A stretch of DNA of 64,000 bases from Dehalococcoidia bacterium (GCA_965217625.1 OZ244557.1:208082-272081), one strand, 5' to 3'; positions 5,834 to 38,842 are shown, counted from the first letter of the stretch. Notes: a model not told the origin generated them from the letters alone. Numbers and translations are program-made.

Positions 5834-8740
5834 TTAGGGGTCGCAGTCGGGGAGGGGGAGTTGGTCGAGGTCGTGGCTGTGGAGGTCGCGGAGGGCGGGG
5901 GGGATGCAGCCGGTCAGACCAGGGTTGCCGCTCAGATGGAGATGCAATAGGTCGTCCAACTCCGCGAACGCCAGGGGGATTGGTCCACTCAGTTGGTTGT
6001 TGTGGAGCAAGAGGGATTCCAGGTGGCGCAGCGACCCCAGTTCCGCCGGAATCGGGCCCGTCAGTTGATTGTCGTTCATAATCAGAATTCCCAACTCCGG
6101 CATTGAGCCCAGCGTCGCCGGGATCGGACCGCTGAGTTGGTTATCGGGCAGATCCAGCCGGTATAGACGCGGCAGGGATCCAAGCTGTGCGGGGATTGGT
6201 CCCGTGAGTTGGTTGCCGCCCAAGTTCAAGTACTCGAGATGCCGCAGCGCCGCTAGTTCGACGGGAATCGGCCCACTCAGTTGGTTGTGAGCAAGATCCA
6301 ACTGCCGCAAGTTGGGCAAGGATCCCAACTCCGAGGGGATCCCGCCCGTCAACTGGTTGCCGGCCAAACGCAGGGTCTTCAGGGTACCCAGGGAGCCGAG
6401 CGCCGCCGGGATCGCACCGCTGAGCAGGTTGTTCTGCAGACGCAGGAACTCCAGGGTGCCCAGGGATCCGAGCGCCGCCGGGATCGCGCCGCTGAGCAGG
6501 TTATCGTTGAGCGACAAGATCTGCAGCCTGGGTAGGGACGCGAGTTCGGCGGGGATCGCTCCGCTCAACTGGTTGTCGCTTAGGTCCAGAACCGAGAGTT
6601 TGGGCAGCGATCCGAGTTGGGCGGGAATCACCCCGGTCAGTCGATTGCGGCCTAGGTACAAGATTTCCAGTGAGTCAAGCGAACTCAACTCTGCCGGGAT
6701 CCCGCCCGTTAACTGGTTGCCGCTCAGGCTGAGGTGCGAAAGTTGGCTAAGGGATCCGAGCCATGCTGGGATCGCGCCGCTCAGCTGATTGCCGTTGAGC
6801 CCCAGGAGTCGCAGATCGCGCAGTGAGCGCAGCGCTGCCGGAATCGGGCCGCGCAGTTGGTTGTGGCTCAGACGCAGGTACTCCAACTCGTGCAGGGATC
6901 CCAGCGCTGCGGGGATCGGGCCAGTCAGCCGGTTGATCCCAAGCGACAGTGTCGTGAGATTGTGCAGGGTGCCCAGCGCCGCCGGGATGGGGCCGCCCAG
7001 TTGGTTGTCACTAAGGCCTAGGGAGGTGAGGTTGCGCAGAAATCCCAACTCCGCCGGGATTCCGCCTGTCAACCGGTTGTGCCCTAGGTACAGGGTCTCC
7101 AGGTCGCGCAGCGATGCCAGTTGCACGGGGATCGGCCCGGTCAGTTCGTTCGCGTCTAACTTCAGTGACCGCAGGGTTCTCATGGACCCCAGCCAGTCCG
7201 GGATCGGGCCCCTGAGATGGTTCCTGCGTAGGCTCAGATTCTCTAGCTTGCGCAGAGAGGCGAGTTCCGCCGGGATGGCGCCACTCAACTGGTTGAAGCC
7301 CAGCGACAGCTGGGTCAGATTGCGCAGAGCCCCCAGCGCCGCCGGGATCGGGCCGCTGAGGTCGTTGCTGTCCAGATCCAGATACCGCAGCTTGCGCAGA
7401 GAGGCGAGCTCCGCCGGAATGGTCCCACTCAACTGGTTGTAGTCCAGCGACAGTTCGGTCAGGTTGCGCAGCGCGCCAAGTGCTACGGGGATCGTCCCCG
7501 TCAGCTGGTTGCCGCGGAGCGACAGGGATTCGAGGTCGTGCAGCGCTCCGAGGTCCGGCGGGAGCAATCCCGTCAGTTCGTTGCGGCTGAGCCGCAAGAC
7601 CCTCAGGCCCGTCAGGCCAGCCAGTTGCGGTGGAATTCGGCCCGTGAGACCACGCAAGTGCAAGTCCAGTCCGGAGACGCGTAGCGGCGTGCCCCCGACG
7701 ATGAGCCCACCCCACTCCGCGATGGGAATGGCGGGATCCCAATTGAGGGGGGCGTCCCCTCGGAGCGTGTCCCGCGCGGCGAGCAGGGCGGCGCAATCCG
7801 AGACGAGGCCGGGGTTGTCGGCGGGGCTGGGCACGGCGACGCCGTTCTCGCAGGGCGGCGGGGGCGGCGGCGGCGGGCAGTCGGGCAGGGGCAGGTCGTC
7901 GAGGTCGTTGGAGGGGACGTCACGTAGCGCAAGCGGGACGCAGCCGCTAAGGCCGGGGTTGCGACTCAACTCCAGGTAGACCAAGTCTCCCAACTCCGCC
8001 AGCGCGGGCGGGATCGGACCGCTGAGGTCGTTGCTGCGCAGATAGAGCGTGGTCAGGAAGCGCAGGGATGCGAGTTCGGCCGGAATCGGGCCGCTGAGTT
8101 GGTTGTGGGACAGGGCCAGATTCCGGAGCGCGGACAGCGCCCCCAGTTCGGACGGGATCGAGCCGCTCAACTCGTTGCTCTGCAGCCACAGCGATTGCAG
8201 TTCCGGCAGGGAGCCCAGGGACGCGGGGATCGCGCCGCTGAGGCCGTTGTTGCTCAGCGCCAGGGACCGCAGCTTGCCCAGCGATCCCAGCGTCGCGGGG
8301 ATCGGACCGCCCAGTTGGTTGTGGTGCAGCCAGAGGTACCACAGGCCGCGCATGTCCCCCAGCGCCGCGGGGATCGGGCCCGACAGTTGGTTGAAGGACA
8401 GATCGAGGCGCCAGAGCGCGTCCAGGCCCGCCAGTCGGGCTGGGATCTGACCCGTGAGACCGTGGCGTGCCAGATCGAGCGTTCGCACGCGCGGCGGCTC
8501 GCCGGAGACGCCGACGCCGTCCCATTCGCGAATCGGCACGGACGCGTCCCAGTTGAGAACAGCGTCGCCGGCGAGGGCGTCCTTCGCGGCCAGCAGGATG
8601 TTGCAGTCGGCTACGAGAGCGGGGTTGAGGACGGCCGTACCGTCCTCGCAGGTGGGGGGCGCGGCCTGGGCCGGGCCGGACGCGAGGCCGGCCAGCAGCA
8701 GCGCGGCGAACAAGAAGAAGGAGAGGGCGCACTTCCGCAC
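5834..8740 (-). CDS. Secreted leucine-rich-repeat protein (968 aa) with two tandem modules. Each module has an N-terminal Cys-cap domain (PTCEDGTAV..DC..LLAAKDAL..LNW), many 24-aa plant-specific-type LRRs, and a C-terminal cap (SGNPGL[ST]GC[IV]P..LPDC). A poly-Pro linker joins the modules.
   Basis: Signal peptide MRKCALSFFLFAALLLAGLASGPAQA. Repeats LxxLxxLxLxxNxLSGxIPxxLGx are visible along the whole protein. The internal duplication is separated by PPPPPPPP. Confidence 0.8.
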   Translation of the reverse strand: MRKCALSFFLFAALLLAGLASGPAQAAPPTCEDGTAVLNPALVADCNILLAAKDALAGDAVLNWDASVPIREWDGVGVSGEPPRVRTLDLARHGLTGQIPARLAGLDALWRLDLSFNQLSGPIPAALGDMRGLWYLWLHHNQLGGPIPATLGSLGKLRSLALSNNGLSGAIPASLGSLPELQSLWLQSNELSGSIPSELGALSALRNLALSHNQLSGPIPAELASLRFLTTLYLRSNDLSGPIPPALAELGDLVYLELSRNPGLSGCVPLALRDVPSNDLDDLPLPDCPPPPPPPPCENGVAVPSPADNPGLVSDCAALLAARDTLRGDAPLNWDPAIPIAEWGGLIVGGTPLRVSGLDLHLRGLTGRIPPQLAGLTGLRVLRLSRNELTGLLPPDLGALHDLESLSLRGNQLTGTIPVALGALRNLTELSLDYNQLSGTIPAELASLRKLRYLDLDSNDLSGPIPAALGALRNLTQLSLGFNQLSGAIPAELASLRKLENLSLRRNHLRGPIPDWLGSMRTLRSLKLDANELTGPIPVQLASLRDLETLYLGHNRLTGGIPAELGFLRNLTSLGLSDNQLGGPIPAALGTLHNLTTLSLGINRLTGPIPAALGSLHELEYLRLSHNQLRGPIPAALRSLRDLRLLGLNGNQLSGAIPAWLGSLSQLSHLSLSGNQLTGGIPAELSSLDSLEILYLGRNRLTGVIPAQLGSLPKLSVLDLSDNQLSGAIPAELASLPRLQILSLNDNLLSGAIPAALGSLGTLEFLRLQNNLLSGAIPAALGSLGTLKTLRLAGNQLTGGIPSELGSLPNLRQLDLAHNQLSGPIPVELAALRHLEYLNLGGNQLTGPIPAQLGSLPRLYRLDLPDNQLSGPIPATLGSMPELGILIMNDNQLTGPIPAELGSLRHLESLLLHNNQLSGPIPLAFAELDDLLHLHLSGNPGLTGCIPPALRDLHSHDLDQLPLPDCDP

Positions 8741-25771: not shown

Positions 25772-26947
25772 TTGCGCGAATGGGGAAGTCCCGTGATCGC
25801 CACGACCGCCCTGGAGCGACGCCCCCATGGCCGCCGGGTCGCGTGCCCGGAGGGGTACCGCGCCTACGTCCCCGCCCCGCTCCCCCCGCCCCTCGCCTGG
25901 GACGGGGGGCTCATCGCCGCGCTGTCCGACGCCGACCGCACGGTCGGCGCCCTCGCCGGCGAGGGCCGCCGCCTGCCCAACCCCCACCTCCTGATCCGTC
26001 CCTTCGTGCGCCAGGAGGCGGTCCTGTCGAGTCGGATCGAGGGGACGCAGGCGACGCTCGGGGAGTTGCTGATCGCCGAGGCGGCCGCGCCGTATCACGC
26101 CGGGCCCGACGACGTCCATGAAGTCGCCAACTACGTGACCGCCCTGGAGTACGGCCTCCACCGCCTCGAGGCGCTGCCCCTGTCGCTGCGCCTCGTGCGC
26201 GAGCTGCACGACCGCCTCATGCGCGGCGTCCGTGGCGATGTCGCCGCGCCCGGGGAGTTCCGTCGCAGCCAGAACTGGATCGGGCGTCCCGGCTGCACGC
26301 TGAACGATGCGTCCTTCGTCCCGCCGCCGCCGGTGGAGCTGATGCCCTGCCTCGGCGCCTGGGAGCGCTACCTGCACGACGACGCGCTGCCGCCGCTGGT
26401 GCACGCGGGGCTGACCCACGCCCAGTTCGAGGCCATCCACCCTTTCCTCGACGGCAACGGCCGCGTGGGGCGTCTGCTGATCACGCTGCTGCTCGTCGAG
26501 CGGGACGTTCTCCCGTCGCCGCTGCTCTACCTCAGCGCCTACTTCGAGGCCACGCGCGACGAGTACTACGCGCGCCTCCTTGGCGTCACCGAGCGCGGCG
26601 AGTGGGAGGAGTGGCTGACCTACTTCCTGCGCGGCGTCGCGCTGCAGGCGCAGGACGCGCTGGACCGCATCCGCCGCATCGACGACCTGCTCGCCGGATG
26701 GAAGCAAGAGCTGCCCCCCGGCCGCTCCCGCGTCCCCCACCGCGCCCTCGACCTCTTCGCCGAGAACCCCTTCTGGACCGTGGCCGGCCTGGCCGGGCGT
26801 CTCGGCGTCGCTTTCACCACCGCCCAGCGCGCCATCGACCGCCTGGAGGCGGCGGGCGTCGTCGCCCGCGTCGGCGAGGCGCGTCGCAACCGTCTCTACT
26901 GCGCCGGCACCCTCCTCCGCGCGCTGGAGGAGCCGGTCGCCGGGTGA
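25772..26947 (+). CDS. fic: Fic-family protein, class II. It has an N-terminal Fic_N with the inhibitory motif SxxxEG, the HPFxDGNGRxGR active site and a C-terminal winged helix.
   Basis: HPFLDGNGRVGRLL is the Fic motif. VLSSRIEGT is the cis inhibitory helix. The annotated start is TTG at 25772; a GTG at 25793 is an alternative. Confidence 0.85.
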   Translation: MREWGSPVIATTALERRPHGRRVACPEGYRAYVPAPLPPPLAWDGGLIAALSDADRTVGALAGEGRRLPNPHLLIRPFVRQEAVLSSRIEGTQATLGELLIAEAAAPYHAGPDDVHEVANYVTALEYGLHRLEALPLSLRLVRELHDRLMRGVRGDVAAPGEFRRSQNWIGRPGCTLNDASFVPPPPVELMPCLGAWERYLHDDALPPLVHAGLTHAQFEAIHPFLDGNGRVGRLLITLLLVERDVLPSPLLYLSAYFEATRDEYYARLLGVTERGEWEEWLTYFLRGVALQAQDALDRIRRIDDLLAGWKQELPPGRSRVPHRALDLFAENPFWTVAGLAGRLGVAFTTAQRAIDRLEAAGVVARVGEARRNRLYCAGTLLRALEEPVAG

Positions 26948-27177: not shown

Positions 27178-27585
27178 TCACACAGGCGTGGCCGGCGGCG
27201 TGATCACCTCGCAGGCCGGGCCGTTGGAGCGGCTGAGCCGTCGGTCCAGCGTCAGCAGCGGGCAATCGAGCGCCTCGGCCAGCGCCACGTACCAGGCGTC
27301 GTAGATCGTCAGGGCGCCACGCAGGGCCCATACCCGCTCGGCGTAGGGGGTGAACGGAAACAGCGTCAGCGGCAGTTGCATCAGCTCGCGCTGCGCGCGC
27401 GTGGCCTCGCTGGGCGTGATCTGCCGGGCCAACTCCATGCGGCGCAGGGTGTTGCTCGCCTCGGCCAGCGCCAACTCCGGGCCCGCGATCCTGTCCATGG
27501 CGATCCGTGATCGCGCCCACCGGCCATCGCGCCCGGAATCGACCAGGGTGGCGATCAGCAGCGACGCGTCGGCCACCACTCTCAC
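27178..27585 (-). CDS. vapC: VapC-family PIN-domain toxin
   Basis: MRVVADASLLIATLVD... matches the PIN acidic-residue pattern. It overlaps the upstream antitoxin gene by 4 nt. Confidence 0.8.
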   Translation of the reverse strand: MRVVADASLLIATLVDSGRDGRWARSRIAMDRIAGPELALAEASNTLRRMELARQITPSEATRAQRELMQLPLTLFPFTPYAERVWALRGALTIYDAWYVALAEALDCPLLTLDRRLSRSNGPACEVITPPATPV

Positions 27586-29553: not shown

Positions 29554-29643
29554 TGGCGGAGGGGGAGGGATTCGAACCCCCGAGACGCTTGCGCGCCTAG
29601 CGGTTTTCAAGACCGCCGCCTTCAACCACTCGGCCACCCCTCC
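29554..29643 (-). tRNA. tRNA-Ser (anticodon TGA), 90 nt with a long variable arm
   Basis: The reverse complement gives GGAGGGGTGGCCGAGTGGTTGAAGGCGGCGGTCTTGAAAACCGC...GGGGGTTCGAATCCCTCCCCCTCCGCCA. The anticodon loop is CT-TGA-AA, the acceptor stem is 7 bp with a G discriminator, the T-loop is TTCGAAT and a CCA end is encoded. Confidence 0.9.
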
Positions 29644-29682
29644 GCGACCGTCGTTGCCGGCCCCCTCAGCCTACCCCGGCCG
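29624..29682. repeat. Left copy of a 59-bp imperfect direct repeat (54/59 identical to 33273-33331). It covers the first 20 nt of the tRNA-Ser 5' end plus upstream flank.
   Basis: AACCACTCGGCCACCCCTCCGCGACCGTCG(T/C)TG(CC/TT)GGCCCC(CT/AC)CAGCCTACCCCGGCCG read at both sites. Confidence 0.8.
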
Positions 29683-32600
29683 CGCCAAGATTCCCTGCCA
29701 ATCGGCGCTCTTATGAACGACCTCCTGTCTACGGAGGTCGATATGCTGGTCTTCGTGGGCGACCAAATCGAATGACGCCCGTTCCCACCGAATCACTGCG
29801 GGGGATGTGGGCAGGACACGGCGCTGCGACGGAGGCAAGCCATCTTCGACCGGCTTCATGGGGCCATCGAGCGAGCCATTCAAGAACCGCTGAACGGGCG
29901 GCTGTTCGAGCGGTGCGCGGTGGATCTCTTGCGCCAGAACTACTACCCGAAGCTGCGTCCCACCCCGGACGGATACGACACCGGCATAGATGGGATCGCT
30001 GGCCCGGATGCGGATCCGGAGTTCGTCCTGGTGGCCACGGTCGCGCAGGATCCCGCGCGCAATCTGAGGGGGAGCGTCAAGCGCCACGTAGATGCCGGTG
30101 GCCCGGGCCGGACCGTCGTATTCGCCACGTCGCAAGCGATCACCGTCGCGCGGCGGCGGCGGCTGGAAGAGGAGTTGAAGGACAAATTCGGGGCTCGGCT
30201 CCTCGCAGTGCATGACTGCGGTGACTTCGTCTGGATGCTCTACGACCACCCCCAGTGGCGGAAGGATCTGCTCGGTGTCGCGGGCGCAGCAAAGGCGCTT
30301 AGTCGATTCCCCGCCAACTCGCGGCCGACGCCTGCGGTCCCCTTGATCGGGCGCGATGCAGATCTCGAGCGACTGCAAGCCGTGACCGGCGATCTCCTAG
30401 TGGTGGGTAAGCCCGGCGTCGGCAAGACGTTCCTGCTGGAACAACTGGCGTCCGAGGGCTGGGGTCTCTTCGATGCGGGATGGGCCATCGACAAGCTTGA
30501 GGACGCCGTCCGGGAGATGAAGCCGCGGCGGGTCGTGGTCGACGACGCACATTTGAAGGGGGAGGACCGCATCCCCCAAGTCGTGAGGCTGCGTCGGGAG
30601 ATGAACGTCGACTTCGACATCGTGGGCGTCTCGTGGCCGGGCCAAGCTGACACCGTGTCGGGGCAGTTGCCCGAGGCGACGCGCTTCGACGTTGAAGAGC
30701 TGGAGCGTGACCAGATCGTCGAAGTGATTGAGCAAGCGGGCATTGGGGGCCCGCCGGAATTGCAGCGCACCATCGTCGATCAGGCCCGCGGCTGCGTGGG
30801 GCTGGCGGTCACACTCGCCCGCGCCTGCGTCGCGGGCAGGGTCCATGAAGTTGCGACGGGCGAAGCGCTCGTCGACGATCTCGTCCGATGGTATGAGCGA
30901 AGGCTGGGTTCAGAGAGTCGTCACATGCTCGGAGTGCTGGCGCTCGCGGGTGACGGCGGCGTGACCCTTGGGCAGGCTCGCGAGATCCTGGGCCTCACCG
31001 TACCTCAGAGCAGCAGCCTCATCCGCGGTCTGGCTTCGGGCGGCACCATTGATGAGGTTCCGTACCGCGCGCCGCGGATGCGGGTGCAGCCCGAAGCACT
31101 GCGCTATGCGCTGGTGCGAGACGTGTTCTTCGGCGGGCTCGGATCGCTGGATGCTGCCAGTGCCATCGATGGCCTCGACCCTCCTTCGGTTGCTGCGATC
31201 CCGCTCATCGGGGCGTCGCATCGTGGCGCGGATGTTGACCGCGGGCTGTTGCAGTCGATTGTTGATTGGAGCGATAAGAGAACTGCCGTGGAATACGCAT
31301 GTCTCGGCCCGGGTGAGTTCCAGACGGCGCTTGAGCAAGCGCCGACGCACCGCACGCCAGTCGCCGAGGCCGCGCTCAAGTTTGGAATCGATACCCGACG
31401 CGCGCTCCAGGTTCTCATGGGACAGGCTGTGGGTGATGATCGCTCCGAGCACAACACGCCCGAACACCCTCTCCGCATCGTCGGTGACCACCTCGCACGG
31501 AGAGAGACGCCATTCGAGGCGAGAAGGCTCGCCGTGGAGGTTGCGGACTCGTGGTTCAAGGAGGGAGGCGACGGCGAGGTCGGGGTCCGCGTGCTGATGC
31601 ACGCCGTGCGGTTGGAGCTGCACGGTGCGGTGCAGGATCCGGGGGTCGGGGACACACTCCGGATATACCGGGGGATGGTGCCCAAGCCGTGGATCGACGA
31701 GCTCTCGCGCCTCTGGGATTCGATCCTCGACATCTTCGATCGCGAGCCCAACCTGCTTCCCGCCCCTCTCCTGGACGCATTGCATCCTTGGGTTCAACCA
31801 AACACGGTTGTCCTCGGACGGGGGCTGGACGACGAGGCTTTCGTTGAGATCCGAAGAATCGCCGCCCGCGTAGTAGCGCGGCTGGCGGAGATATTCGGAG
31901 ATCGCCCAGGTGTGCTGCGCTCCCTGAATGAGCATGTGGAGCGTGGGAATATCCCGGTCCCGATCGAGTTGCCGGACTACTTCACAGTGCTTTTCCCGAA
32001 ACGCTGGGACGGTTCTGACGACGACGACGGGCTAGACGGGTGGCAGCGTCGGGCCGACGCGGGGGTGCGGCGCTTAGCGGAACAACTGCGCAAAGAGTCT
32101 ACCGACGACATCGCGGCGTTCATCGTAGGCGCAGACTCTCAGGCCGCCACGGCCGGAATCACGTACCCGCGTCACACGCCTCATCTCGCCAGAAGGCTCG
32201 CCGCAGACTCGGACTCGCCCGAAGCGTTGCTCGCCGCCCTGGAAGCGAGCACGGCGGCCCCTGACATCCTCCTGCCGCTCCTCGACCGCGTTGCTGAACT
32301 CCAGCGTCCGGGTTGGGAAGCAACCCTCGAACGTCTGCTCGCTGAGGATCGGGCGGCTTGGGTGCCTATCCAGGTCGCACTGACCCGCCCCTGCGACAAC
32401 CGGCTCAAACAGCTGGCGATCAAGCAGACTGGACCCTGGCTCAGTCTCATTGACAACCTCGTGATCATGGACCAGATCGAGCACGCGACGCTCGCGCTCC
32501 TCTTCGACGCGCCTGACGCCAGCGTTCGGAAACAAGCAGCGACGACGATAGGAAGCGTGGATTCTGGGTGCCGGCTCGAGAGCCTGTCTCCCTCCATGCT

Positions 32601-33272
32601 CTCGCGCTGGCGACAGATCATCGTGGACAGTCCCGCAGGCGACTACTGGTTCTCCGAAATCCTCAAGCACGACGATGAACTCTGCGCCGACTGGCTCCGG
32701 GCCTGGTTCAAGCGGTACGCCCAGGGCGAGTACGCATTCCTCCCGCGAGAAGTCAGCGCGGTGATCGCCAGCTTGCCCGCGGACGTCCGGGTCACGCTCA
32801 TCGGAGACGTGCCCGCCGACGCGCCACTGTCGCTGCTGCAGGACGCAGTCCGGAGTCTCGTGTCCCATGACCTTGACGTGATGATGGCTCTCTTTGACCG
32901 ACCCGAACTTGAGTGGCTGCATAGCGTCGCATTGCGGGGTGGGCCCAGCGAGGTCTGGATGGACCGCGCGCTAGCAGCTCTGGATCGCGGGTGGGAACCA
33001 GAGCGGATCGTCTCGGCAACGGAGTTCTCCGAAGCAGCATGGTTCGGTGAGGAGAGCCAGCATTGGCAGGGAAAGATTGACTCCTTCGCAGGTTTTCGTC
33101 AGAAGATGGGGGAGCCCCTCGATGCGCGGCAGGAGCGGATCATCGCGGCGGGAGTCGCCTACTTCGAGCGACACCGCGACGAAGCCGCTAAGCGTGAACA
33201 CCGCGAGCGTGTGTTCGGTCGGGGATCGTAGCAAGCAACGATGTCGAGGCCGGACTACTACCTAGCGTCCCC
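29644..33272. mobile_element. Roughly 3.6-kb low-GC genomic island inserted next to tRNA-Ser. It is bounded by att-like direct repeats and carries one giant ORF. No integrase is present.
   Basis: GC falls to about 60% against about 72% around it. The direct repeats duplicate the tRNA 5' end and the 3' end of the neighbouring phosphohexomutase gene. Confidence 0.5.
29920..33231 (+). CDS. Large island-encoded protein (at least 1103 aa) with an N-terminal Mrr-like (PD-(D/E)xK) restriction-endonuclease-like domain, a P-loop NTPase and a helical C-terminal region of about 800 aa. It is a candidate Avs/STAND-like defence protein. The true start is probably upstream, since the frame is open from 29776.
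   Basis: Mrr_cat-like FERCAVDLLRQNYYPKL...DTGIDGI. Walker A LLVVGKPGVGKTFLLEQLA. Walker B RRVVVDDAHL. The open frame continues upstream through ...AIFDRLHGAIERAIQEPLNGRL before reaching a TGA at 29773-29775. Confidence 0.6.
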   Translation: MDLLRQNYYPKLRPTPDGYDTGIDGIAGPDADPEFVLVATVAQDPARNLRGSVKRHVDAGGPGRTVVFATSQAITVARRRRLEEELKDKFGARLLAVHDCGDFVWMLYDHPQWRKDLLGVAGAAKALSRFPANSRPTPAVPLIGRDADLERLQAVTGDLLVVGKPGVGKTFLLEQLASEGWGLFDAGWAIDKLEDAVREMKPRRVVVDDAHLKGEDRIPQVVRLRREMNVDFDIVGVSWPGQADTVSGQLPEATRFDVEELERDQIVEVIEQAGIGGPPELQRTIVDQARGCVGLAVTLARACVAGRVHEVATGEALVDDLVRWYERRLGSESRHMLGVLALAGDGGVTLGQAREILGLTVPQSSSLIRGLASGGTIDEVPYRAPRMRVQPEALRYALVRDVFFGGLGSLDAASAIDGLDPPSVAAIPLIGASHRGADVDRGLLQSIVDWSDKRTAVEYACLGPGEFQTALEQAPTHRTPVAEAALKFGIDTRRALQVLMGQAVGDDRSEHNTPEHPLRIVGDHLARRETPFEARRLAVEVADSWFKEGGDGEVGVRVLMHAVRLELHGAVQDPGVGDTLRIYRGMVPKPWIDELSRLWDSILDIFDREPNLLPAPLLDALHPWVQPNTVVLGRGLDDEAFVEIRRIAARVVARLAEIFGDRPGVLRSLNEHVERGNIPVPIELPDYFTVLFPKRWDGSDDDDGLDGWQRRADAGVRRLAEQLRKESTDDIAAFIVGADSQAATAGITYPRHTPHLARRLAADSDSPEALLAALEASTAAPDILLPLLDRVAELQRPGWEATLERLLAEDRAAWVPIQVALTRPCDNRLKQLAIKQTGPWLSLIDNLVIMDQIEHATLALLFDAPDASVRKQAATTIGSVDSGCRLESLSPSMLSRWRQIIVDSPAGDYWFSEILKHDDELCADWLRAWFKRYAQGEYAFLPREVSAVIASLPADVRVTLIGDVPADAPLSLLQDAVRSLVSHDLDVMMALFDRPELEWLHSVALRGGPSEVWMDRALAALDRGWEPERIVSATEFSEAAWFGEESQHWQGKIDSFAGFRQKMGEPLDARQERIIAAGVAYFERHRDEAAKREHRERVFGRGS

Positions 33273-33331
33273 AACCACTCGGCCACCCCTCCGCGACCGT
33301 CGCTGTTGGCCCCACCAGCCTACCCCGGCCG
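33273..33331. repeat. Right copy of the 59-bp direct repeat (attR-like). It overlaps the last 4 codons and the stop of the phosphohexomutase gene (33320-33331).
   Basis: See 29624-29682. Confidence 0.8.
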
Positions 33332-34732
33332 ACGCAGATCCGGCGGCAGCGACGCCACGCCCGACGCTCGCAGGGCCTCCGAGACCCGTTCGGCGATGAC
33401 CTTGTACGCCTCGCGGCTCTCGGCCTCCAGGCGGAGGCTGAGCACGGGCTCGGTGTTCGATGCGCGCACCAGCGCCCAGCCGCCGTCGAACTCGATGCGC
33501 GCCCCGTCGATCTCCAGCACCGGCTGCGACGCCCGGAAGCGCGCCGCGCACTCCTCGGCGATGCGGAACTTCGCGGCGTCGTCGCAGGGGATGCGCAGCT
33601 CCGGCGACGTCACGAGCGCCGGCCCCGGCCCCCCCGCCCCGGCCATCAGCGCCGACAGCGGTCGCCCCCGCGCCGACACCAGCTGCGCGATGAGGCAGGC
33701 CCCGAAGATCGCATCGTCGAAGCCGAAGTAGTCCTCGCGGAAGTAGAAGTGCGACGAGGCCTCGCCGCCCAGCAGGATGCCGGCCTCGCGCATCAGCCGC
33801 TTCGCCGGCGAGTGCCCCGTGGGGCCGAACACCGGCCGCCCGCCGTGCGCCTCAATGGCCCGGATGGTCGCCAGCGACACCTTCACGTCGACCAGCACGC
33901 GCGCCCCCGGATGGCGCGACAGCAGGTCCCAGGCCAGCAGCGACAGGATGGCGTCGGGGTCGTGGCGGCGGCCCGTTTCATCGACGACCCCCAGGCGGTC
34001 GCCGTCGCCGTCCCACGCGACGCCCATGTCGGCCCTCTGCGCGACCACCGCCGCGCGCATCCCCTCCATCGACGCCGGCAGTTGCGGGTCGGCGGGCGCG
34101 TCCGACCCCCCGGCGTCCGGCTCCAGGCGGAGCCCCACGACGTCGCAGCCCGCCCGCTCGAGCGCGGCCGGGCCGGCGATCGCCGTCACGCCGTGGCCCG
34201 CGTCGGCCACGACCCGCAGCGGCCGTCGCAGCGCGAAGCGCTCGCCCAGATAAGCGACGTACTCGGGCAGCGCGTCCCGCTCCTCGAACGCCCCCGCCCC
34301 CTGCTCGAAGTCGTCCGCCTCGATCAGTGCCCGCAGCCCCTGGATCGCCGACGCCGACAGCGGGATGCCCTCCGACTCGAGCAGCTTCAGCCCGTTGACC
34401 TCGGGCCCGCCGTGGCTGCCGGTCACGTTGCAGCCCCCGGCCATCCCCCAGCGCGCCGCCGCGAAGTACAGCAGCGGCGACGGCGACAGCCCGATCCCCA
34501 CCACGTCCACGCCCGACGCGCGCGCCCCCTCGACGAACCCCCGCAGCAGCTCCTCCGACGACGGCCGGTTGTCGCGCCCCACGACGATCGTCGCCGCCCC
34601 GCCGGCGCGCCGCAGGTGCGTCGCGTACGCCCGGCCGATCAGCCGCGCCGCGTCGGGCGTCAGCTCCGTGTCCGCGCGGCCGCGGATGTCGTAGGCGCGG
34701 AAGATGCGGGGCTCCACGGTCGTGCCGCTCAT
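33320..34732 (-). CDS. Phosphomannomutase/phosphoglucomutase (alpha-D-phosphohexomutase family)
   Basis: Active-site TGSHGGPEVNGLKL and a four-domain PGM/PMM architecture. 470 aa. Confidence 0.9.
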   Translation of the reverse strand: MSGTTVEPRIFRAYDIRGRADTELTPDAARLIGRAYATHLRRAGGAATIVVGRDNRPSSEELLRGFVEGARASGVDVVGIGLSPSPLLYFAAARWGMAGGCNVTGSHGGPEVNGLKLLESEGIPLSASAIQGLRALIEADDFEQGAGAFEERDALPEYVAYLGERFALRRPLRVVADAGHGVTAIAGPAALERAGCDVVGLRLEPDAGGSDAPADPQLPASMEGMRAAVVAQRADMGVAWDGDGDRLGVVDETGRRHDPDAILSLLAWDLLSRHPGARVLVDVKVSLATIRAIEAHGGRPVFGPTGHSPAKRLMREAGILLGGEASSHFYFREDYFGFDDAIFGACLIAQLVSARGRPLSALMAGAGGPGPALVTSPELRIPCDDAAKFRIAEECAARFRASQPVLEIDGARIEFDGGWALVRASNTEPVLSLRLEAESREAYKVIAERVSEALRASGVASLPPDLRRPG

Positions 34733-36929: not shown

Positions 36930-37088
36930 GCGTCCTCATGGGGATGAACGCCAGGCTCACTTCCGCCGCCGAGGCCTACTTCGAGGAACTTCGCCGCGTG
37001 CGCGCGTCGGGCGGCGCGACGGCGGAACGCTCCCGCTACCACAGTCGTGGAGTTCCTCACAGCCACAGTTCCGGCGGGCGAGAGAGCG

Positions 37089-37304
37089 CTAGTCCTCCTC
37101 GATCTCCCATGCGCCGAATGCAGCCACCTCGACCGAGCCCGTAGCGTCGAGACGGAAGACGTCGTCTTCGTCGGAGGAGAGGGCCCGGGCAGCCTCAATG
37201 CGCTCCTCGTCTGTGGCGTAGGGGCCGTGCAGTTCGGGCTCGACGCTTCCCCAGACATACAGTAGGTAGCGTTGCGTAACCTCGCCGTTCGCCTCTGTGG
37301 CCAT
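37089..37304 (-). CDS. Small acidic hypothetical protein (71 aa)
   Basis: Strong RBS (AAGGAG) 10 nt upstream of the ATG at 37304. Sits in a low-GC region immediately downstream of the 37322-38209 gene. The upstream extension of the track ORF is junk. Confidence 0.4.
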   Translation of the reverse strand: MATEANGEVTQRYLLYVWGSVEPELHGPYATDEERIEAARALSSDEDDVFRLDATGSVEVAAFGAWEIEED

Positions 37305-37321
37305 CCTGCTCTCCTTCCTCT

Positions 37322-38209
37322 TTACGCCGGAATCCGCTGATGCCAGCGGAACACGTCTGCGTTGGTCATGAAGCCGCACAGCTTGTCGAGGCCGCTCGCC
37401 TGGAACGTCGGACGACGGAGATTCCTCGCGAACACGCTGCGCCTCATCTCGTCGGCCACGATGGTGAACCTTGGCGGCTCTGTGAGGGACAGATGGACGT
37501 CGTTCATCCGCAACAGCCCAGAGTAGATTGGCGTCGAGTGTTCGACCTCGTACAGGCTGACTGGAGTGTTGGCGCCCCGCGCCATCCACACTACGTCGAT
37601 CTCACGCACCACGGAGTCGAGGCCCGGCGGCATCGTTGTCCGGAACGGAAACCGTGGCACAAGACTCCAGTCCATCTTCTGGCGATCGTTCGGTGGAACC
37701 CACACGTCGAGGCCCCGGGCATCGCCGATCGCACCCAGTAGCGTCTGCACTTGTGAGTGATCGAGAGCCGGCGCCTCGTCTCGGGCGTCTGCCAGTGCGC
37801 CGAGCAGCGCCTCCCAGCCGAAGTACGCCTCGACATTGTGACGTCCGGCTCGCGCGATGTAGAACTCGGTGGGTTGGCTGTCGTGGATGTAGACCTGCGC
37901 CTTGACTTGGCCGTCGGCAGCCGGTCCAGCTTCGTCGAAGAGCTCGCCGAAGTGAGCCAGCGGGAGCAGCAACGGCTCAACCTGTCCGTCCCACAGCAGC
38001 GCGATAAACGCCGTCCGCCCATCGAGTTCTCGCAAGTCCTGCTCGCGGAGACCATAGAAGGTGTTGCCCTTTTCGTAGACGCGTGAGTAGCGCACGTACA
38101 CGAGCGTCTGCCCGTCGCCGAGTTCGAACAGCGATCGACTGTTACCCAGTCGCTTCAGCTGCCCCGCTCGTTCGGAGAGCTCCCGCAGAAACGCTTCGCG
38201 TGGCTTCAT
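37322..38209 (-). CDS. Hypothetical protein (295 aa), a possible PD-(D/E)xK-type nuclease (motifs LDVWVP / EIDVVW...YEVEHS)
   Basis: Low-GC (about 60%) gene. The start is placed at MKPREAF. No confident family assignment; the nuclease-like motif is weak. Confidence 0.4.
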   Translation of the reverse strand: MKPREAFLRELSERAGQLKRLGNSRSLFELGDGQTLVYVRYSRVYEKGNTFYGLREQDLRELDGRTAFIALLWDGQVEPLLLPLAHFGELFDEAGPAADGQVKAQVYIHDSQPTEFYIARAGRHNVEAYFGWEALLGALADARDEAPALDHSQVQTLLGAIGDARGLDVWVPPNDRQKMDWSLVPRFPFRTTMPPGLDSVVREIDVVWMARGANTPVSLYEVEHSTPIYSGLLRMNDVHLSLTEPPRFTIVADEMRRSVFARNLRRPTFQASGLDKLCGFMTNADVFRWHQRIPA

Positions 38210-38536
38210 GCTCCTGACGATACCGCGAACCTGCTGCCCAGCGCACGGTCGGCAGCGCGCCGAGATTCTTGTCGACGCGGGTATCGTCAAGATTGCTGAT
38301 CAGTGCAGGCCATGCTCGAAGTGCGAGACGATTCGGTTGCGCATCTTCGGCCCCCGCTCACGGAACACCGGAAAGAGGCTCGACCGCCCCCGACCCCGCC
38401 CCGCTCCCGCGCCACCGCCCGACGCCCGTCGCATCGCGGCGATCGTCGGGCTGGTGGCGTCGGGCTGACCCCCGCCCCGGCTCCGTCGTCGCTCCCACCC
38501 CCGGGCGCGCGATAGACTTGACGAGCGGAGGACGGA

Positions 38537-38842
38537 ATGGCCGAGCAGGCTCTCAGCAGCAGCGACACGCTGGCCCTCCTACGGGCGCACAAGCCGGTGC
38601 TGGCCGAGCGTTTCGGCGTGTCCGGCCTCGCGCTGTTCGGCTCCACCGTCCGCGACGAGGCGGGGCCGGACAGCGACATCGACATCCTCGTGAGCTTCAC
38701 GCGGCCTCTCGGGTCGAAGCGGTACTTCGGCGCCTGGCACTACATCGAGGACCTGCTCGGCCGCCCGATCGACTTCGTCACGGACAGGGAATTGCGCCCG
38801 GAGCTACGGCCCTACGTTGAAGCTGAGGCGGTGCATGTCTGA
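38537..38842 (+). CDS. Minimal nucleotidyltransferase (MNT-type, antitoxin half of HEPN/MNT pairs), apparently orphaned
   Basis: GSTVRDEAGPDSDIDILV is the nucleotidyltransferase GS...D.D motif. Only a 38-codon ORF (38835-38951) overlaps its stop, and it is not convincingly HEPN. Confidence 0.75.
   Translation: MAEQALSSSDTLALLRAHKPVLAERFGVSGLALFGSTVRDEAGPDSDIDILVSFTRPLGSKRYFGAWHYIEDLLGRPIDFVTDRELRPELRPYVEAEAVHV

Follow-up and report, generated by a model that had tools for sequence, protein, structure and literature searches.

A predicted Mrr-STAND-solenoid protein, probably antiviral, in a tRNA-Ser-linked variable slot of a Dehalococcoidia-type genome

What is the role of a long gene that stands alone beside a tRNA-Ser gene in a Dehalococcoidia bacterium, and what kind of site does it occupy? 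We addressed this question in a window of 64,000 nucleotides (GCA_965217625.1 OZ244557.1:208082-272081; positions are counted from its first letter), in which one plus-strand frame runs uninterrupted from 29776, immediately behind a TGA at 29773-29775, to a stop codon at 33229-33231. An initial annotation had proposed that this frame encodes a protein of at least 1100 residues with an Mrr-like nuclease segment, a P-loop NTPase and a long helical C-terminus, and that the gene is a candidate single-gene antiviral STAND system resembling Avs. Translation of 29650-33231 recovered the frame with all of the motifs quoted for it, and only the start was refined, to ATC 29842 or CTG 29824 (see below). 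Residues are numbered here from ATC 29842, which gives a coding sequence at 29842..33231 (plus strand) and a product of 1,129 residues. Our analysis indicates that the gene probably encodes an Avs-type antiviral STAND NTPase working as a single protein, and that it is the only cargo of a variable defence slot linked to tRNA-Ser in a genome of the Chloroflexota (Dehalococcoidia type).

To describe the protein we used a full-length AlphaFold2 model built with 60 homologues (predicted local distance difference test, pLDDT, 88.9; predicted template modelling score 0.72). The central part begins with a predicted P-loop nucleotide-binding domain (NBD; residues 166-300, 30337..30741, plus strand) that carries the Walker A motif GKPGVGKT (residues 189-196, nt 30406-30429) and the Walker B motif VVVDDAH (residues 231-237, nt 30532-30552), and G189, G194, K195, D234 and D235 are invariant or nearly so among 131 distant members of the family. 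It continues into a helical lid domain (HD; residues 301-357, with a conserved G303-P304) and a winged-helix domain (WHD; residues 358-430, with conserved P417 and R421), which together occupy 30742..31131 on the plus strand. A tripartite NBD-HD-WHD module (residues 166-430) followed by a large repeat domain is the arrangement of the STAND superfamily. A Foldseek search with the full-length model returned Avs3 as the top PDB match (SeAvs3, PDB 8dgc; E 5.4e-10), followed by CED-4, Apaf-1, the AVAST5 filament and RuvB, which bears out the STAND-type NTPase proposed initially. The long helical C-terminus also held up: about 700 residues (431-1129; 31132..33228, plus strand) form an importin/CAND1-like alpha-solenoid with a single beta-hairpin at residues 592-612, modelled at a pLDDT mostly above 90. 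Structural matches of the solenoid were to CAND1, importin-beta, CRM1 and the Avs3 repeat region, with no specific relative, and family members conserve the region over its whole length; we presume that it is the sensor.

The N-terminal 150 residues (29842..30291, plus strand) have, in the model, the alpha-beta-beta-beta-alpha-beta core of the restriction-endonuclease fold, which matches the fold of Mrr/MspJI/AspBHI/AF1548-type PD-(D/E)xK domains (Pfam Mrr_cat) and agrees with the Mrr-like segment of the initial annotation. As in Mrr_cat, the sequence presents an FE helix (FERCAVDLL, residues 22-30, nt 29905-29931, with E23), a D-x-G-x-D-G strand (D46-x-G-x-D50-G; DTGIDG, residues 46-51, nt 29977-29994), a hydrophobic strand (VLVATV, residues 62-67, nt 30025-30042) and an (A/T)T(S/T) strand (A-T96-S); this correspondence rests on the motif pattern and the secondary-structure register, not on superposed coordinates. 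Unlike in Mrr_cat, the position of the catalytic (Q/E)-x-K motif reads L-V-A-T66-V in the window protein and L-[V/I]-x-T-T family-wide, and the lysine is absent. The change had been suspected from the window copy, and we found it throughout 60 close homologues, a 31-sequence alignment of the N-domain and 130 distant representatives at 26-38% identity; it is therefore a family trait and not damage to the window copy. Since no member examined has the canonical lysine, nuclease activity of the N-domain cannot be assumed. E23, D46, G48, D50, T66, N74 and T96 are nevertheless invariant or nearly so even in the most distant of these members, and this conserved set of polar residues argues for an enzyme. 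The N-terminal position can also hold a different module: in one member (P0117) a Schlafen AlbA_2 domain (51 bits, above threshold) stands in place of the Mrr-like domain, with homology to the window protein from residue 161 onward. Such swapping is typical of the effector positions of STAND immune proteins. The N-terminus thus carries a fold of the type used by Avs effectors, with an uncertain chemistry.

The predicted order of effector, STAND core and sensor is that of Avs proteins. Avs4 (EcAvs4, PDB 8dgf; portal-sensing, with an N-terminal Mrr-like nuclease) combines an Mrr-like PD-(D/E)xK domain, a STAND NTPase and a large helical repeat sensor in the same order on a single polypeptide; it differs from the window protein, however, in lacking any detectable sequence similarity to it, in being about 400 residues longer and in having the (E/Q)xK lysine, and the sensor of the window protein found no specific match. 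A profile search against PDB sequences recovered at most the P-loop for the whole family, and the N-domain searched alone gave only the P-loop or nothing. Avs3 (terminase-sensing, with a Cap4-like nuclease), the best structural match, likewise joins an N-terminal nuclease-fold effector to a STAND core and a repeat sensor, but the TM-score is only 0.21, which marks an architectural and not a close match, and Avs3 uses another effector subfamily and is about 2,000 residues long. The likeness to Avs2, which has an Mrr-like effector, a STAND NTPase and a TPR-like sensor and is activated by tetramerisation, is drawn from its description (PMC13601566) and is accompanied by no PADLOC AVAST match. Avs2 homologues mostly use Mrr-like double-stranded DNA nuclease effectors, and the N-terminal nucleases of Avs3, Avs4 and Avs7 are activated by tetramerisation (PMC13601566). 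Mrr is listed among the STAND (seed) effectors in a 2026 survey that distinguished 589 STAND clades (198 associated with defence) and 90 or more Avs sensor families (PMC13581612). The AP-ATPase/NB-ARC and archaeal Arch_ATPase STAND cores (CED-4, Apaf-1, plant NLRs, PAB2304/SSO1545) differ from the window protein in their N- and C-terminal domains. By sequence, the protein belongs to none of the Avs/AVAST families modelled in PADLOC 2.0. By architecture and context the family fits the Mrr-STAND-repeat class; it is uncharacterised, escapes PADLOC 2.0 and has a design that holds no surprise.

Homologues of the gene are numerous. A database search returned 193 at E <= 1e-3 (best E = 0), of which the full-length ones measure 1,100-1,145 residues, cover 96-98% of the query and are all annotated 'hypothetical'. 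An exhaustive profile search among cluster representatives (50% identity) found 1,934 at E <= 1e-3 and at least 1,035 at E <= 1e-30; the alignments of the top 150 span residues ~3 to ~1128 in nearly every case, and nearly all of the members at E <= 1e-30 are full length (1,100-1,130 residues). The genome matches are mainly metagenome-assembled genomes (MAGs) of Chloroflexota/Dehalococcoidia, with other hosts among Binatia, Bryobacterales, Thermoanaerobaculia, Acidimicrobiia, Saccharibacteria and Hyphomicrobiales and one Bdellovibrio isolate, and several genomes hold two copies (loci L009/L019 and L014/L028). The window's own host also looks Chloroflexota-like by the names of the closest homologues of its fumarase. 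A few relatives carry a precomputed AAA_16 annotation. The gene thus belongs to a large, unnamed family that is conserved over its full length and found mostly in Chloroflexota.

Against the orthologues in L038 and L039, the ratio of nonsynonymous to synonymous substitution rates (dN/dS) is 0.26-0.32 in every domain (0.32 against L038), comparable to that of the flanking housekeeping genes. With dN/dS near 0.3, the gene is therefore under purifying selection, and together with the homologue counts this leaves a real gene where one had been predicted. Every family-invariant residue and the 1,129-codon frame are intact in the window copy, as judged against 60 close homologues. By the synonymous rate (dS) the allele is a mosaic: the N-domain (29842-30291) lies at dS 0.27 from L039 and 0.70 from L038, whereas the remaining 980 codons lie at 0.07-0.20 from L038 and 0.53-0.77 from L039. 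This pattern indicates recombination between alleles near the junction of effector and NTPase. As a separate observation, the homologous gene is broken into 2-4 open reading frames (ORFs) in several long-read MAGs (L002, L018, L021, L025, L030, L037 and L040), in L040 by a 1-nt insertion in the N-terminal helix; these split homologues could be true pseudogenes or homopolymer assembly errors.

The gene lies by itself on an islet of 3.6 kb, as the initial annotation had stated. On the side of the Gmad2 gene the islet is bounded by an intact tRNA-Ser(UGA) gene (29554..29643, minus strand; ARAGORN, and Rfam RF00005 at 60.2 bits). The left copy of a 60-nt direct repeat (29623..29682) consists of 21 nt of the tRNA 5' end and 39 nt from upstream of the tRNA, in which the last codons of the PGM/PMM gene are duplicated; in the right copy (33272..33331), a decayed tRNA-Ser reduced to its 5' 21 nt precedes the native tRNA-upstream sequence, and the copy enters the PGM/PMM gene itself (33320-34732, minus strand) at its 3' end. 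A repeat search placed the two copies 3,649 nt apart at 92% identity, with the first 31 nt identical, and a 17-nt core of the repeat is present in two copies in the window, where chance would give 0.07. Between the repeats there are only the STAND gene and a 20-codon upstream ORF, and the G+C content at third codon positions (GC3) is 0.76 in the STAND gene versus 0.90-0.97 in the neighbouring genes. The direct repeats derived from a tRNA gene at both ends are those of a tRNA-targeting island, but no integrase or recombinase, the other mark of such an island, was found in the islet or among the flanking genes.

Comparison with related genomes showed that the insertion is not young. The same tRNA-Ser adjoins the homologous gene in L038, L039, L040 and L056; an orthologue stands at the same Gmad2/PGM site in L038 (88% identical protein), L039 (74%) and L056 (88%). 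The flanking tRNA copies are both complete in L054, and the repeat is 49 nt long in L038 and is kept in neither L039 nor L040. PGM is 94% (L038) and 83% (L039) identical to its window counterpart, so that the divergence of the STAND protein tracks that of the flanking genes. Given this synteny and parallel divergence, the insertion is therefore older than the species represented by the window, L038, L039 and L056, and we rejected a recent horizontal arrival in the window genome. The mosaic N-domain still shows exchange of alleles. We also rejected the idea that the gene is a tRNA-targeting element in itself: 30 of the family's 37 genome loci have no tRNA within 10 kb, and linkage to tRNA-Ser is limited to the window's own clade. 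In L040 the same block of tRNA-Ser, spacer and gene stands in an unrelated neighbourhood, which suggests that the tRNA travels with the STAND gene.

The context that weighs most is that sister genomes whose PGM is 91-93% identical carry other cargo in the same PGM/tRNA-Ser/Gmad2 slot. L054 has a 1,068-residue Type IIG restriction-modification (R-M) enzyme (PADLOC 2e-67) between its two complete tRNA-Ser copies; L055 has a different, 1,047-residue Type IIG enzyme (3e-47) and a 224-residue gene, the tRNA next to PGM being complete and that next to Gmad2 a 3' remnant; L057 carries a 319-residue HSDR_N/REase_I-like gene together with a 263-residue gene; and L056, L038 and L039 have the STAND gene. 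All of the sister genomes looked up carry cargo, none having an unoccupied slot, and a metagenome scan for an empty site with the tRNA 5' end and its upstream bases returned only unrelated tRNA loci. The slot is thus a defence hotspot that varies between strains and has tRNA-Ser copies at its borders, one of them decaying. It shares with tRNA-linked defence hotspots and integration islets the flanking tRNA copies (two full ones in L054, one full copy and a 21-nt remnant in the window) and the alternation of defence cargo; it differs from them in having no integrase in or beside it and in that the decayed tRNA of STAND-carrying genomes is a 5' fragment on the PGM side rather than the usual 3' fragment. 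The simplest inference is that cargo would be exchanged by homologous recombination across the conserved flanks or through tRNA copies borne by the element.

Elsewhere in the family the gene is found at several loci, on a qualitative assessment, with defence genes or on mobile islands, an association that also marks Avs systems. Downstream of it lie RES/HEPN, SIR2_2 and SNF2/NOV_C helicase genes in L040 and DUF87 and DruA in L041; the L042 locus belongs to an integrative conjugative element that encodes a 1,192-residue SIR2_2 protein, L043 has an integrase, insertion sequences, Dcm and EcoRII-C, and IS21 copies accompany a caspase-helicase in L044. Among 115 flanking proteins scanned as a pool there were also Type III R-M systems at two loci, UvrD/GajB-like helicases at two, integrases at two and Cap15 at one. 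In about a quarter of the genome loci (7-9 of 37), a translationally coupled gene of about 275 residues without a Pfam match overlaps the STAND stop codon (L003 13387-14259; L005 13368-14189; L006, L009, L016 and L017; fragments in L008, L010 and L028). Its C-terminal ~130 residues match the PADLOC candidate PDC-S05 (1e-10 to 4e-13), and the gene carries a motif, HxRxxxxD, that by eye resembles that of phospholipase D (PLD). PDC-S05 has been reported to protect against T7, T5 and T4 (bioRxiv 10.1101/2024.09.26.614923).

The translation start of the window gene is unusual. No ATG, GTG or TTG occurs in frame from 29776 up to GTG 29920, and we rejected GTG 29920 as the start since the conserved first two helices and the FE motif would be deleted. 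The N-termini of homologues (MPDxLYxAI) align with IFDRLHGAI of the window protein, which places the family methionine at ATC 29842; the likely start is therefore ATC 29842, behind a Shine-Dalgarno-like GGAGG at 29831-29835, or CTG 29824 (candidate region 29824..29844, plus strand). At the family-methionine position the window, L038 and L056 have ATC, L039 and L040 have ATT, and none of the five genomes has ATG; a conserved GGAGG stands 6 nt ahead of the codon in all five. Six codons upstream of this position there is an in-frame TTG in L038, L039, L040 and L056 and a CTG in the window. Possibly the ATC/ATT codon has been maintained as a near-cognate start by which little of a toxic protein is made. 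The short upstream ORF (29713..29775, plus strand; MNDLLSTEVDMLVFVGDQIE followed by the stop TGA 29773) has 20 codons in the window, shortened by a 1-nt deletion. Its ATG is conserved in L038 (from 5811), L039 (from 5793), L040 (from 5792) and L056 (reverse strand), where the ORF has 45-49 codons (MDD...ILVFVTD...) and terminates about 15 nt into the main gene, counted from its ATC/ATT codon. This overlap in the relatives suggests translational coupling. A promoter and terminator scan of the islet gave no signal above chance.

Together, these data favour an Avs-type immune sensor. The three-part architecture, the folds, the family-wide conservation, the purifying selection, the N-terminal swapping and the slot shared with restriction enzymes are what the analysis shows; an antiviral function, a nuclease activity and a trigger are what we infer. 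The C-terminal solenoid of about 700 residues would bind a phage-derived protein. Binding would then free the NBD-HD-WHD module for ATP binding and oligomerisation, as the architecture and the literature on Avs2, Avs3, Avs4 and Avs7 suggest, and oligomerisation would cluster and activate the Mrr-like domains, which might attack DNA and abort the infection. A more tentative and doubtful proposal is that the lysine-less Mrr-like domain (E23/D46-x-G-x-D50-G/T66/N74/T96, in more than 1,000 clusters) is catalytic in a way new to the restriction-endonuclease fold, or acts without nucleolysis, as an effector or adaptor joined in some systems by a PLD-like partner, and that dosage in the window's clade is limited by the overlapping upstream ORF and the conserved non-AUG (AUC/AUU) start. 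If this proposal held, the Avs-type sensor would bring effector chemistry and expression control that are new to its class.

Several findings weigh against an Avs-type antiviral role and have to be set beside the evidence for it. The full protein passed no threshold in Pfam, NCBIfam or PADLOC, where only sub-threshold P-loop or Mrr matches were seen, and no curated STAND profile (AAA_16, NACHT, NB-ARC, nSTAND) recognised it above threshold; the Pfam scores were 23 bits for AAA_16 (cut-off 32.6), 15.9 for nSTAND3 (27.2), 11.4 for NACHT (26.7) and, on the N-domain, 14.5 for Mrr_cat (E 0.04; gathering score 21). In the PADLOC check that had been proposed, the window protein matched an REase module (8e-5, on the N-domain), mad8 (5e-4) and two PDC entries on the P-loop, and no AVAST/Avs model of PADLOC 2.0 at E <= 1, a negative that does not extend to the newer Avs6-21 families. 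A search of IMG/VR viral contigs and PLSDB plasmids found no relatives, some loci have no defence neighbours (L045, for example, is a solo insertion within a leu/ilv operon), and the functional support consists of architecture, conservation and context. One rival is a regulatory STAND signalling ATPase of the MalT/AfsR kind whose nuclease-fold domain would bind DNA: AAA_16, the best Pfam match, includes many such regulators, the catalytic lysine is lost, and about 10 of the top 150 representatives have an extra N-terminal Xre-type helix-turn-helix (HTH_3/HTH_31) ahead of the Mrr-like domain that might assist in this; defence and non-defence STAND clades are, besides, interspersed in the published phylogeny (PMC13581612). 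We nevertheless regard a regulatory role as very improbable. The window protein, like most family members, has no HTH, neither an operon partner nor a set of target genes is conserved, and the gene alternates with restriction enzymes in a strain-variable slot, has mobile-element or defence neighbourhoods elsewhere, is patchily distributed among phyla and occurs in two copies in several genomes. A regulator of the LuxR/AfsR type in particular was rejected, and the refuting outcome named in the initial annotation did not come about: the protein has no such output domain, and the N-terminal nuclease fold is present.

The main rival keeps the immune role and questions the effector. Of the canonical D...(D/E/Q)xK triad, D50 (and D46) is kept and the lysine is missing in every member examined, with [V/I]-x-T-T in the place of (E/Q)xK, and the Mrr-like domain could accordingly be a non-catalytic adaptor, DNA-binding or oligomerisation module in a defence STAND sensor that kills through another activity or partner. 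The overlapping gene of ~275 residues, with its PDC-S05-like C-terminus and PLD-type motif, may be the real effector where it occurs, and the window, which does not have it, would hold a copy without a partner or one that uses a host factor. We judge this unlikely. The near-invariant E23, D46, D50, T66, N74 and T96 resemble an active site more than a scaffold at 26-38% identity, the partner gene is absent from most family loci, including those of the window and its orthologues, and replacement by Schlafen AlbA_2 befits an effector module. The regulator and a silenced allele are minor rivals by comparison. The latter, in which the window allele alone and not the family would be functionally silent and recently disabled, draws on the absence of a canonical start from 29776 to 29920, on the CTG in the window versus the TTG of four relatives, and on the 1-nt deletion that cuts the upstream ORF from 45-49 to 20 codons, all of which leave room for low or lost expression. 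It seems to us improbable nonetheless, as the frame is intact over 1,129 codons with all family-invariant residues, dN/dS against L038 is 0.32, and an ATC/ATT behind a conserved GGAGG in five genomes looks like a maintained near-cognate start and not like a lesion.

If the gene does encode an Avs-type antiviral STAND NTPase, it represents a large unnamed family of single-gene immune sensors, with at least 1,035 clusters, centred on Chloroflexota, scattered through other phyla and missed by PADLOC 2.0. The Avs repertoire would then gain a sensor, and with it a natural test of whether a lysine-less restriction-endonuclease fold can serve as a death effector. Our view of bacterial immunity as a whole would not change, the architecture and logic being already well described. 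As a compact defence hotspot of an uncultured lineage, with one-gene cargoes (STAND, Type IIG R-M, REase-like) that alternate between genomes ~92% identical in the flanking genes, the PGM/tRNA-Ser/Gmad2 slot should be useful for mining further cargo.

Other features of the window and its relatives were noted in passing. A second variable slot lies at about 36930-38540 (G+C 0.65-0.66), between a GRDB-like gene and an NTP_transf_2 (MNT-type) gene. In L056 (419-3736) and L057 (1439-4759) this slot holds a Type IIG/Type ISP R-M enzyme of ~1,105 residues, and the window has low-GC DNA instead, with an ORF at 37322-38290 (minus strand) that gives only a weak PADLOC REase_II match (1.5e-6). At 5834-8740 (minus strand), the window encodes a 968-residue protein that consists almost wholly of leucine-rich repeats (LRR_8, E 7e-89) and drew no PADLOC match; the surrounding stretch has a lower G+C content (0.63-0.67). 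Just upstream of Gmad2 are a Fic/DOC-family protein gene (25772-26947, plus strand) and a PIN-domain (VapC-like) toxin gene (27178-27585, minus strand), the latter paired in L038 and L039 with a FitA-like ribbon-helix-helix antitoxin.

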